A DNA stretch of 64,000 nucleotides from positions 372,001 through 436,000 of the forward strand of contig NZ_SMNA01000003.1 in the NCBI RefSeq assembly GCF_004353825.1, written 5' to 3'. The notes beneath the pieces were generated by a model. It did not search any database, was not told the origin of the DNA, and saw nothing but the letters and a program-made list of their open reading frames with translations. This document shows positions 31,353 through 36,382 of the stretch, in pieces. Made by a program: the position numbers and the translations under genes. Position 1 is the stretch's first letter. Each line of letters starts with the position of its first letter. This DNA is from Occultella glacieicola. Its GTDB lineage: Bacteria; Actinomycetota; Actinomycetes; Actinomycetales; Beutenbergiaceae.

Positions 31353-32366
31353 ATGGCCGCGCGCAGGGACTGGAGCGAGTCCGACGTCCGGGTGCGCCCG
31401 AACCCGAAGGGGAACCGGCCGCGCACGAAGCAGCGGCCGGAGCACTCGGACGCCGAGCAGGCGCTCGTCCTGGCCGTGGACCGTGGCCGCTACCAGCTGC
31501 TCACCGACGACGCCCTGCGCGTGGTCGCGATGAAGGCACGCGAGCTCGGTCGGGCGTCGATCGTGGTGGGCGACCGGGTGGACGTGGTCGGCGACACCTC
31601 CGGCGCGAAGGACACCCTGGCCCGGGTGGTGCGCGTGCACGAACGGCGCACGCTGCTGCGCCGCTCCGCGGACGACTCCGACGTCATCGAGCGGGTCATC
31701 GTCGCGAACGCCGACCAACTCGTCATCGTCACCGCCCTGGCGGACCCGGAGCCGCGGCCCCGGATGGTGGACCGCTGCCTGGTGGCCGCGTTCGACGCCG
31801 GCATGGACGCCCTGCTCTGCCTGACGAAGGCCGACCTCGCCGACCCCGGGCCGTTCACGGAGCTGTACCGGACCCTGGACGTCCCCGCGGTCGCGACCTA
31901 CCGTCAGGACGGGCGGATCCACGGCCTCGAGGAGCTTCGCGAGCAGCTGACCGGGCGGATCTCGGTGCTGGTCGGCCACTCCGGCGTCGGGAAGTCGACC
32001 CTGGTGAACGCGCTGGTCCCGGACGCCGACCGGGCCACCGGGGTGGTCAACACGACCACCGGCCGGGGTCGGCACACCTCCTCCTCGGCGGTCGCCCTGG
32101 AACTGCCCGGCGGCGGGTGGATCATCGACACCCCCGGCGTGCGCTCGTTCGGCCTGGGGCACGTGGACCCGGCCACGTTCGTGGACGCCTTCGCCGACCT
32201 CGCCGCCGTGGCGCAGGACTGCCCGCGCGGCTGCACGCACGCCGCCGACGCCCCGGACTGCGCGCTGGATGAGTGGGTGGCCTCCGGTGCCGCAGGCCCG
32301 GCCGGCGAAGCCCGCCTCGAGTCGTTCCGCCGGCTCCTCGCGAGCCGCTCCGGCGACCCCGACTGA
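31353..32366 (+). CDS. rsgA: ribosome small subunit-dependent GTPase A
   Basis: circularly permuted TKAD...GHSGVGKST...GRHT...DTPG, CPRGCTH...C. Confidence 0.95.
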   Translation: MAARRDWSESDVRVRPNPKGNRPRTKQRPEHSDAEQALVLAVDRGRYQLLTDDALRVVAMKARELGRASIVVGDRVDVVGDTSGAKDTLARVVRVHERRTLLRRSADDSDVIERVIVANADQLVIVTALADPEPRPRMVDRCLVAAFDAGMDALLCLTKADLADPGPFTELYRTLDVPAVATYRQDGRIHGLEELREQLTGRISVLVGHSGVGKSTLVNALVPDADRATGVVNTTTGRGRHTSSSAVALELPGGGWIIDTPGVRSFGLGHVDPATFVDAFADLAAVAQDCPRGCTHAADAPDCALDEWVASGAAGPAGEARLESFRRLLASRSGDPD

Positions 32367-32384
32367 CCGCGCCCCGCCCCAGCC

Positions 32385-32460
32385 CGCTGAGATCGCACCT
32401 GACGCTGTGAGTTCGCACCGGCACCGGGTGCGAACTCACAGCGTCAGGTGCGAGGTCAGC
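32385..32460. repeat. left palindrome cluster: four 12-mers (>> <<), 27-bp perfect stem, 7-nt loop
   Basis: 32393-32419 is the exact reverse complement of 32427-32453; core TGAG(A/T)TCGCACC recurs at 20-bp pitch. Confidence 0.95.
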
Positions 32461-32524
32461 GGCGTGGACGGCGGCTGTCCACAGGGTCAAGGCACGTCGG
32501 CGCCGGGTCGGCCAGAGTGCGGGG

Positions 32525-33556
32525 ATGTCCGATGACGTCCCGGTCCCGCCCAACCTCCCCCGCACCTTCCTCACCGGTGAGCTGACCGCGAGCGTACGCG
32601 CCCGGCTGCTCGCCGAGGGCCGGCTCACGCAGGTCCGGACCGGTGCGTTCGCGATCGTGGACCCGAACGCACCACGATGGCGACGCAACCGCGCCAACGG
32701 CCTCGGTCGCTGCGTGGCTGCCGCGCGGGTCCTCTCCCGCGACCACGTGTTCGGTCACACGTCCGCCGCACTCCTGCACGGCTGCGCGTACTGGCGGATC
32801 GACGAGAAGGTCCACCTGTTCCAGGATGGCAACCCCAGTCCGCGACACACGAAGGACCTGTTCCGGCACGTCGGCGTGATCCCCGAGCCCGAACGGACGG
32901 TGGTCAACGGCCTGCCCGTCACCACCCTCGAACGGACCATCCTCGACTGTGCCCGGATCCTGCACCCGCGGGACGCGCTCATCGTCGTCGACAGTGCGCT
33001 CCGGATCCTCGTCCGGCCTGACCGGGAGGATCGACCGGGCACCGACCGCCGCACCGCGCAGGTCCGGGACGGGCTGCTCGAGCGCCTCGAGCAGCCCGAC
33101 ATGCGCCGAGGACGGCGGCAGGCCCGCGCGTTGATCGCACTCGCCGATCCCTATGCCGAGTCCGCCGGGGAGTCCGCGGTCCGCTGGCTCGCGCTCGCCC
33201 GCGGCCTGCCGGTCCCGGTCTGCCAGTGCCCGGTCCCGGCCGAGGACAAGACGTACTACACCGACATGGCGTGGTACCTCAACGTGACCCGATCGGACGG
33301 GTCGGAACGGCTCGTCACGATCCACACCGAGTTCGACGGACTCCTCAAGTACCTCGGCGCGGGCCCCGACGCCGCCCGCGTGGTCAGCGAGGAGAAGGTG
33401 CGCGAGGACCGGATCCGCGCGACCGGAGCCGAGGTCGTCCGGGTGATCTGGGACGATCTGTCCCGGCCGGGTCGCGTGTTCGACCGGATCACGCAGTTCC
33501 TGCCCGTCGGTTCCGTGCATGCGCTGCGCGCCCGCGCCGAACTGTTCCGCCCGTGA
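32525..33556 (+). CDS. AbiEi-like N-terminal/central region plus C-terminal DUF559/Vsr-like PD-(D/E)xK nuclease domain
   Basis: GRLTQVRTGAF, GHTSAALLHG, GLPVTTLERTILDCAR, AESAGES, YTDMAW...EFDG..KY...EKVREDRIR..G..VVRVIWDDL. Confidence 0.78.
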   Translation: MSDDVPVPPNLPRTFLTGELTASVRARLLAEGRLTQVRTGAFAIVDPNAPRWRRNRANGLGRCVAAARVLSRDHVFGHTSAALLHGCAYWRIDEKVHLFQDGNPSPRHTKDLFRHVGVIPEPERTVVNGLPVTTLERTILDCARILHPRDALIVVDSALRILVRPDREDRPGTDRRTAQVRDGLLERLEQPDMRRGRRQARALIALADPYAESAGESAVRWLALARGLPVPVCQCPVPAEDKTYYTDMAWYLNVTRSDGSERLVTIHTEFDGLLKYLGAGPDAARVVSEEKVREDRIRATGAEVVRVIWDDLSRPGRVFDRITQFLPVGSVHALRARAELFRP

Positions 33557-33627
33557 CCCCGCACTCCACACACTGAGATCGCACCACCCGACGGTGCGAT
33601 CTCAATGCCGCACGTGCGATCTCAGCG
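33554..33627. repeat. right palindrome cluster: four related 12-mers (>> <<), 7-nt loop
   Basis: TGACCCCGCACT (33554), TGAGATCGCACC (33574), GGTGCGATCTCA (33593), cGTGCGATCTCA (33613). Confidence 0.88.
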
Positions 33628-33632
33628 ACATC

Positions 33633-33702
33633 TGGGGGTGGACGGGGCGGGGGGGGTGGGGTCAGGCGCGGTGGGGGTGGGTTCAGGCGCGGTGGGTGAG
33701 GG
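33633..33702 (+). repeat. G-rich tract containing a 21-bp-period duplication of the sdhB 3' end
   Basis: TCAGGCGCGGTGGG at 33662-33675 and 33683-33696; several G3-G8 runs. Confidence 0.7.
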
Positions 33703-34425
33703 CGCCGAGGACGTCGCGGTTCAGGCGGGAGATCAGGTCGATCTGGATGCCCTTCGGGCAGGCGGCCGTGCACTCGCCGATCTGGGTGCAGCCGCCGAAA
33801 CCCTCGAGGTCGGCCTGGGCGACCATATCCAGCGCCCGCGAGTGCCGCTCCGGCTGACCCTGCGGGAGCAGCCCGAGGTGGGTCACCTTGGCGGCCACGA
33901 ACAGGGACGCCGATCCGTTCGGGCAGGCCGCCACGCAGGCGCCGCAGCCGATGCAGGTGGCGGCGTCGAACGCGGCGTCCGCGTCGGCCTTCGGCACCGG
34001 CACGGCGTGCGCGTCCGGCGCGGTGCCGGTCGGTGCCGTGATGAAGCCACCGGCCTGGATGATCCGGTCGAAGGCGCCGCGGTCGACGATCAGGTCCTTG
34101 ATCACCGTGAACGGCTCGGCCCGCCACGGCTCGACGTCGATCACGTCGCCGTCGGAGAACGAGCGCATGTGCAGCTGACAGGTGGTGACGCGTTCCTTCG
34201 GGCCGTGGGCCAGGCCGTTGATGACCAGGCCGCACATCCCGCAGATGCCTTCGCGGCAGTCGCTGTCGAAGGCGATCGGGTCCTCGCCCGCGATCGTGAG
34301 GTTCTCGTTGAGGACGTCCAGCATCTCCAGGAACGACATGTCCGGGGACACGTCGGTGACCTGGTAGGTCTGCATCCCCCCGGCGTCGTCGCTGTTGCGC
34401 TGACGCCACACCCGCAACGTGATGT

Positions 34426-34429: not shown

Positions 34430-36382
<1,953 letters not shown>

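Follow-up and report, generated by a model that had tools for sequence, protein, structure and literature searches.

The locus considered here raises the question of why a gene for a hypothetical protein of 343 amino acids stands between two clusters of the same palindromic 12-mer, and whether the gene and the repeats belong to one system. The gene lies in a 64,000-nt window (the whole stretch of DNA that was analysed, G000:C17:372001-436000) of a 5.34-Mb actinobacterial assembly with 71% G+C, called G000 below. An initial annotation had proposed a distinct repeat-plus-nuclease system, and this proposal is supported by solitary clusters elsewhere in the genome, by cognate repeats at homologous genes and by a protein that is not of the HUH type. 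The partnership of gene and repeats is held with high confidence. The gene and its two clusters are, somewhat more probably than otherwise, a cognate pair in which the nuclease would bind a 12-mer code of its own and cut at the elements, spreading or maintaining 76-nt palindromes at gene ends in the manner of the transposases associated with repetitive extragenic palindromic (REP) sequences, the REP-associated tyrosine transposases (RAYTs), with an unrelated enzyme.

The architecture of the two clusters was analysed at the locus itself (Table 1). Both consist of 12-mers related to TGAGATCGCACC in the arrangement >> <<, and the starting positions of the copies, the pitch of 20/19/20 bp with the 7-nt centre, the outer inverted repeat of 14 bp (32385-32398 and 33614-33627, perfect when read from the sequence) and the position of the stop codon (TGA, 33554-33556) within the first right copy were all as the initial annotation had described them. 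Its count of four copies on each side holds for seven of the eight, which lie within two mismatches of the 12-mer (0, 1, 1 and 2 for the left copies in order of position; 0, 0 and 1 for the last three right copies); the first right copy is weak, matching by eye at 8 of 12 positions, and falls outside this limit. The raw number of 12-mers in the window, nine at up to two mismatches against 7.9 +/- 3.0 expected, is not in excess, and seven of the nine fall in the two clusters, so it is the clustering and not the number that carries weight. Taken as 80-nt arms, the two elements are 74% complementary. The left cluster forms a single long hairpin with 41-nt arms that are 90% complementary around the 7-nt loop, and its folding energy as single-stranded DNA is -47.3 kcal/mol (z = -11.3). 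The right cluster is more decayed, with non-complementary outer spacers and a folding energy of -19.8 kcal/mol (z = -4.1). The spacers had been described as different and free: they do differ between the two clusters, but within the left cluster and in most solitary copies the arm spacers are complementary and pair, and they are not free.

The distribution of the repeat in the whole genome was analysed using a profile built from 14 copies of this family (family 1). The search revealed 37 loci, 35 of them at an expectation value (E) below 1e-3, with the flanking elements at 1.3e-17 (left) and 6.9e-12 (right); the genome-wide search suggested earlier thus gave solitary clusters at 33 further sites. 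A covariance model (R1) recovered the same 35 loci as 70 hits over both strands, scoring the left element at 91.7 bits and the right at 65.8 bits. The consensus is CGC-TGAGATCGCACC-N8-TGAGATCGCAC-N7-GGTGCGATCTCA-N8-GGTGCGATCTCA-GCG, with an element length of about 76 nt. None of the 35 loci lies within a putative gene, as judged by an open reading frame (ORF) heuristic based on G+C at third codon positions. Convergent gene pairs hold 15 of them, co-directional pairs 13 and divergent pairs 3 (four were not assigned), a placement which puts the elements chiefly at the 3' ends of genes, and some copies overlap stop codons. Comparison with the known RNA families of Rfam returned only sub-threshold look-alikes of microRNA hairpins, and this assignment was rejected.

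The palindromic symmetry of the family is preserved through compensatory change. Across the arms, spacers included, 13 of 24 pairs have changed on both sides, and pairing cells amount to 89.6% against 81.5 +/- 1.0 in shuffles (reached by 0 of 500) and 28-38% when the partner is slid. Since the complementarity runs through spacers that are specific to each copy, a hairpin, cruciform or fold-back intermediate is suggested rather than protein binding alone. Among the 11 longest near-perfect palindromes of G000 (at least 25 of 28 arm positions), seven belong to family 1 and one to a second family, at the flank of a paralogous gene. The family-1 repeats also fragment assemblies. Elements stand at contig ends of G000 (C9:86-160 and C6:129462-129537), and contigs C39 and C30 of the congener G002 break at the element orthologous to C21:334176.

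The association of repeats with the gene was then compared between members of the gene family. The genome holds one intact paralogue (C21:239718-240737, 47% identity), and it is flanked on both sides by another 12-mer (CGAGTCAGTCG type) in the same >> << architecture. This family 2 has about 15 loci in G000 including the two at the paralogue, and hence about 13 solitary ones. The genus also contains a third type of gene (38-40% identity), and this too is flanked by its own repeats. The full homologue set comprised 21 loci, namely the paralogue and 20 best-hit loci from 19 other genomes, and the sequence of the palindromic clusters at their flanks varies from gene to gene and agrees between the two sides of one gene. 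A flank score was obtained by local alignment of 300 nt upstream with 350 nt downstream. It was at least 25 in 13 of the 21 loci and above 16 in 18 of them, against a mean of 11.4 and a 99th percentile of 16 for 400 random genes of G000, among which one scores at least 25 and two at least 18. The one random gene with a high score (C17:326869) is a hydrolase gene between directly repeated coding sequence, an unrelated case. When flanks were ranked against those of the other loci, the cognate flank came first in 15 of 21; the exceptions were close relatives with a common repeat or the weak loci L004, L005 and L020. The expectation that each homologue would have its own cognate flanking repeat is, with the random genes as control, true of the paralogue and of most homologues.

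These results bear on the simplest explanation, that ordinary intergenic repeats lie by chance on either side of an unrelated gene. The 33 other copies would be in line with it, as would the filling of gene-end spacers by different repeat families in different species, but repeats occupy both flanks of the gene, those of the paralogue (where the family is a different one) and those of 18 of 21 homologue loci, compared to about 1% or fewer of random genes, and chance is strongly disfavoured, the least probable of the explanations weighed.

Two further observations on the gene family and its repeats may be recorded. Profile search revealed three decayed members of the nuclease family in G000 (C17:315927-316838, C17:304620-305291 and C19:344115-344810); an internal TGA is present in two of the three, two of the three have kept their own flank repeats, and none has a DnaA box at up to one mismatch. 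Upstream of the orthologue in the congener G001 (L003:1300-1440), the element has an expanded left arm of five CGACATCGCACC units, each 20 nt long and in tandem, an arrangement like that of bacterial interspersed mosaic elements.

The nature of the encoded protein was analysed by sequence and by predicted structure. Searches of Pfam, NCBIfam and PDB sequences with the 343-aa protein were empty, Pfam giving no family at E <= 1, and the closest named matches, with 67% identity, are hypothetical proteins from Occultella aeris and O. kanbiaonis. The AbiEi models of PADLOC cover residues 30-150 (E = 1e-11), and the Pfam matches among 30 aligned homologues were to AbiEi_4 (12), REase MTES_1575 (8), DUF559 (4) and AbiEi_1 (3). 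The AlphaFold model is confident, with a predicted local distance difference test (pLDDT) value of 91.9 and a predicted template modelling score (pTM) of 0.90. Residues 12-208 superpose on the AbiEi antitoxin 6y8q, the top hit of Foldseek (E = 1.5e-4; Z 7.4), and comprise a winged helix and the AbiEi C-terminal domain. Residues 209-331 match the catalytic domain of I-Bth0305I (3r3p, Z 7.8), the DUF559 protein NGO0050 (3hrl, Z 7.4) and Vsr (1cw0, Z 7.4), with root-mean-square deviations of 2.6-3.2 A over 91-102 residues, Z values which, being below 8, may reflect a common fold only. E216, R220, D247, E269, G272, Y276 and R293 are invariant over the 30 sequences, down to 28% identity, and D271, K275, E290 and K291 are nearly so in the same alignment. 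Such a pattern would be expected of a live PD-(D/E)xK site, and the predicted fold together with the conserved residues fits an active nuclease. The reading of the protein as PD-(D/E)xK-type and not HUH is in accordance with PADLOC, with the Pfam matches of the homologues and with the fold, and the structure prediction that had been recommended gave an AbiEi-like winged helix and a Vsr-like nuclease domain. In a profile search the family extends to 42,140 clusters (50% identity) at E <= 0.001 and to 26,033 at E <= 1e-10.

The N-terminal half suggests another explanation, an AbiE-like module acting against phages or as a toxin-antitoxin pair, with which the PADLOC match and the top Foldseek hit both agree. 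AbiEii (PF08843), however, is absent beside the gene, as had been noticed initially, and was found nowhere in G000 by a search that was positive in 3 of 14 control genomes. The same chain also has a nuclease fold as its C-terminal half, and association with repeats is no feature of AbiE. A module of this kind is considered very improbable, and the defence role once suggested has nothing in its favour beyond the AbiEi-like domain, in a genome without AbiEii. The Y1_Tnp family (PF01797; RAYT and IS200 transposases) was likewise not found anywhere in G000, though the search was positive in 6 of 14 control genomes. The earlier remark that neither a transposase nor a target-site duplication is visible therefore stands for the duplication and, genome-wide, for Y1_Tnp, the only transposase family searched.

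A mechanism for the cognate pair can be proposed from these observations. The AbiEi-like winged-helix domain would read the 12-mers; as their pitch of about 20 bp is close to two helical turns, the four sites would lie on one face of the duplex, with room for up to four protomers. The Vsr-like domain would cleave at or near the element, and 76-nt elements would thereby be copied or maintained at the ends of genes, with each copy kept palindromic through a hairpin or cruciform intermediate. The gene would stay between its two elements, recombination between them could flip it, and DnaA would tie its expression to replication. The link of gene and repeats is directly observed; the mobilisation of the repeats by the nuclease has about an even chance of being correct.

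The same placement and folding of the elements can be read in another way, with the protein acting chiefly as a DNA-binding regulator or structural protein, the flanks as operator and terminator, and the scattered copies as a regulon or as hairpin terminators or mRNA stabilisers kept by the host. AbiEi autoregulates via inverted repeats, and the N-terminal domain here is AbiEi-like; the elements lie mostly at gene 3' ends with very stable folds, and many copies are conserved between species. Yet the nuclease-motif residues are invariant across the 30 divergent sequences, of the 31 elements that could be assigned only 3 stand between divergent genes, the place of promoters, and the repeat sequence changes with each paralogue, which is not required of a host terminator. 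A scan of 32300-33750 revealed neither a sigma-70-type promoter nor a T-tract terminator consensus. This explanation is regarded as unlikely in comparison with a cognate pair of nuclease and repeats.

The putative link to replication rests on a DnaA-box-like site, CTGTCCACA, which follows the left element by 11 nt and precedes the ATG by 42 nt. A TCCACA-type box was present upstream in 20 of the 21 homologue loci, and a box at up to one mismatch to TTGTCCACA, always in forward orientation, in 14 of 21, compared to 11 of 1000 random genes of G000. The high-affinity DnaA box of M. tuberculosis and S. coelicolor is TTGTCCACA (PMC4285127), and the dnaA-dnaN spacer of G000 carries a cluster of boxes of this type. 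The box provides a testable link between the dynamics of the repeats and replication. Sites of the DnaA-box-like form TGTCCACA also precede yraN (UPF0102), rpsF, dnaB, a ParA/CpaE-like ATPase gene, whiB, a DUF222 HNH gene (two boxes), a DUF932 gene and others (G000 C10:19184, C11:163306, C11:193435, C4:119060, C16:561441, C21:30327/30356 and C20:167380), and the boxes mark a candidate DnaA regulon of DNA-handling genes. A reading of the shared upstream motif as a competence (DNA-uptake) promoter was rejected in favour of a DnaA box, since the motif equals that box and stands before such varied genes.

Table 1. Features of the nuclease locus, in window coordinates
Feature	Position	Strand	Description
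Left palindromic element	32385..32464		four 12-mers (>> <<) at 32388, 32408, 32427 and 32447; hairpin with 36-bp stem and 7-nt loop
DnaA-box-like site CTGTCCACA	32475..32483	+	one mismatch to the actinobacterial high-affinity box TTGTCCACA
Nuclease gene, 343-aa product	32525..33556	+	residues ~12-208 AbiEi-like; ~209-331 Vsr / I-Bth0305I / DUF559-like PD-(D/E)xK domain (predicted)
Right palindromic element	33548..33627		copies at 33554 (degenerate, includes the stop codon), 33574, 33593 and 33613

The nuclease gene is preceded by aroA and rsgA and followed by sdhB and sdhA, and the left element begins 19 nt past the rsgA stop. Between the right element and sdhB lies a 21-nt G-rich tandem duplication (window 33644-33685), which repeats the final bases of sdhB including its minus-strand stop codon. 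The first ~28 codons of the 278-aa sdhB ORF (5' end 34436-34519, minus strand) are probably untranslated, because an in-frame stop is found there in the G001 orthologue.

The distribution of family 1 beyond this genome was analysed by scoring model R1 over 41 genomes, with at most 102 candidates per genome. The hits over both strands were 70 in G000, 50 in G001, 39 in G002, 22 in G003, 34 in G010, 52 in G011, 82 in G017 and 55 in G022. These eight genomes have at least 10 loci, each together with a homologue of the gene at E <= 1e-45, and 27 of the 41 genomes have none. In the congeners G001 and G002 the gene again lies between rsgA and sdhB and is flanked on either side by family-1 elements. 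G003 has no orthologue. A truly empty rsgA-sdhB site, which had been suggested as something to look for in relatives, was not found; in G003 the site holds the aconitase gene acnA (956 aa) and the glyceraldehyde-3-phosphate dehydrogenase gene gap (336 aa), with no palindromic cluster (L027, C32:78600-83200).

The rate of evolution was compared between G000 and G001 as protein identity and as nonsynonymous (dN) and synonymous (dS) divergence. The gene has 66% identity (dN 0.26, dS 0.68, dN/dS 0.38), compared to 92% for rsgA (0.046, 0.38 and 0.12), 90% for aroA (0.065, 0.35 and 0.18) and 96-98% for sdhB (0.013, 0.21 and 0.06). The nuclease gene thus keeps its chromosomal site and evolves at a much higher rate than the genes beside it. 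In another genus (g6), the cassette stands at one site but is inverted in G035 (L015) relative to G031 (L018); the flanks of this pair agree at 85-89% in reverse complement, and the gene at 71% in the same orientation, being the more diverged part.

Several of these results also bear on the idea that the whole repeat-gene-repeat cassette is itself a mobile or homing unit, with the clusters as its terminal inverted repeats and the solitary clusters as footprints or miniature derivatives. The perfect 14-bp repeat at the outer ends would be expected of such a unit, as would the terminal inverted repeats of about 55 bp at L015, the inversion at the same site in g6 and the lack of the gene at this site in G003. 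The dS of the gene, 1.8-3.2 times that of its neighbours, could mean allelic replacement, and the best structural match of the nuclease domain (3r3p) is a homing endonuclease. It is set against these points that one intact gene is present per repeat family compared to 33 and about 13 solitary copies, that the gene occupies the same site in three of four congeners and in four g6 genomes, that each flank is a full palindrome with no half-site, and that no target duplication is seen. A mobile cassette is accordingly given a low probability, similar to that of a regulator with its operators.

The behaviour of single solitary elements was analysed in the congeners. The element at C19:186219 of G000 is missing in G002 and G003 and is a remnant in G001. 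G000 and G002 share the element at C19:172246; in G001 another repeat stands in its place, and in G003 it is missing and the two genes are 5 nt apart. At C19:439317 another family of tandem and inverted repeats (CTGACGCGAA...GCGGGTC type) is found in G001 (L060) and G003 (L058). The element at C21:334176 is present by position in G001, the G003 region aligns through unbroken, and the contigs of G002 end at the element. The copy at C11:489453 has the same gene as its neighbour in G001 and G003, and the one at C21:85478 is common to the species by length only. These comparisons revealed that solitary copies are gained and lost between species, and that the spacers at gene ends act as hot spots in which several families of repeats settle.

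Some results weigh against a nuclease that spreads or maintains its own repeats. The structural matches are middling, in agreement with the sequence family and no proof of function. The co-occurrence of repeats and gene overstates the number of independent cases, because related genomes are kin, and G003, which is without an orthologue, retains about 11 family-1 loci. Flank similarity was not above background at L004, L020 and L028 (3 of 21 loci, 300-nt window), and for the repeat of the G011 homologue BLAST gave no copies beyond the two flanks of that gene. Movement of elements, if any, is rare, because several solitary copies are orthologous across species that are ~13% diverged, and neither a target-site duplication nor a clean insertion boundary was present at the two empty sites examined.

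The wider significance follows from the place of such repeats in bacterial genomes. Few non-coding features are as common in these genomes as REP-type repeats, and RAYTs, which have been studied mainly in Proteobacteria, are thought to spread or maintain REP repeats and their hairpin-forming doublets (REPINs). To our knowledge, the RAYT transposases are the only enzyme class so far tied to REP-type repeats. The genomic syntax found here is the same: the gene lies within palindromes of its own, each paralogue has a private repeat family, the gene evolves quickly at a site that is fixed, and the repeats stand at the ends of genes. The enzyme differs from RAYT in fold and probably in chemistry, and the studied genome has no RAYT. 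It is a tentative proposal, somewhat short of an even chance, that the very large actinobacterial family of 26,033 clusters forms a second, HUH-independent enzyme class that creates and maintains palindromic repeats throughout genomes, combining a winged-helix reader and a Vsr-like nuclease with a private four-site phased 12-mer code, hairpin or cruciform upkeep and DnaA-box timing. If true, this would explain the origin of many actinobacterial intergenic palindromes, would give a function to tens of thousands of 'DUF559/AbiEi-like hypothetical proteins' and would provide a natural set of protein-DNA recognition pairs in which the 12-mer code changes with the protein. The arrangement of a DUF559/AbiEi-like nuclease with flanking palindromes was not found described in the literature covered, subscription journals lying outside that coverage.

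The system was finally compared with the known systems that resemble it in part. The REP literature lists, among the traits of RAYTs, inverted flanking REPs, co-evolution with the REPs, rapid evolution of the gene and correlation with the abundance of the cognate repeat (Nunvar 2010, PMC2817692). These four traits are found here, and so are two further ones of the REPtron and REPIN-RAYT systems (PMC2817692; Bertels & Rainey 2011, PMC3116915), the extragenic dispersal of the repeats as hairpin-forming doublets and the pairing of one cognate repeat with each gene. The enzyme, however, is an AbiEi-like winged helix with a Vsr-like PD-(D/E)xK domain (predicted), whereas RAYT is an HUH/Y1 transposase. 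The unit consists of four phased 12-mers (~76 nt), a layout that suggests the protein binds duplex DNA instead of recognising a single-stranded hairpin; copies number in tens and not hundreds, and the hosts are Actinobacteria. With the AbiEi antitoxin of the type IV AbiE system (6y8q; Rv2827c, 1zel) the protein has in common its N-terminal fold and sequence family, but here AbiEii is lacking, a nuclease is fused at the C-terminus and repeats flank the gene on either side and are dispersed over the genome. Vsr (1cw0), NGO0050 (3hrl) and I-Bth0305I (3r3p) have a fold like that modelled for residues 209-331, but the domain here is fused to an AbiEi-like reader and is not borne by an intron or intein. 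Classical insertion sequences and miniature inverted-repeat transposable elements differ in that no target-site duplication is seen here at the element ends, and Y1_Tnp, the sole transposase family searched, is absent from G000. The likeness to systems in which DnaA acts as a transcription factor lies in the TTGTCCACA-type forward box, a predicted site upstream of most family members. Because G000 is without a Y1 transposase and without AbiEii, the system falls outside both the REPtrons, strictly defined, and the AbiE toxin-antitoxin pairs, and it is best read as an undescribed repeat-plus-enzyme system of the REP/RAYT kind that is built on an unrelated nuclease.

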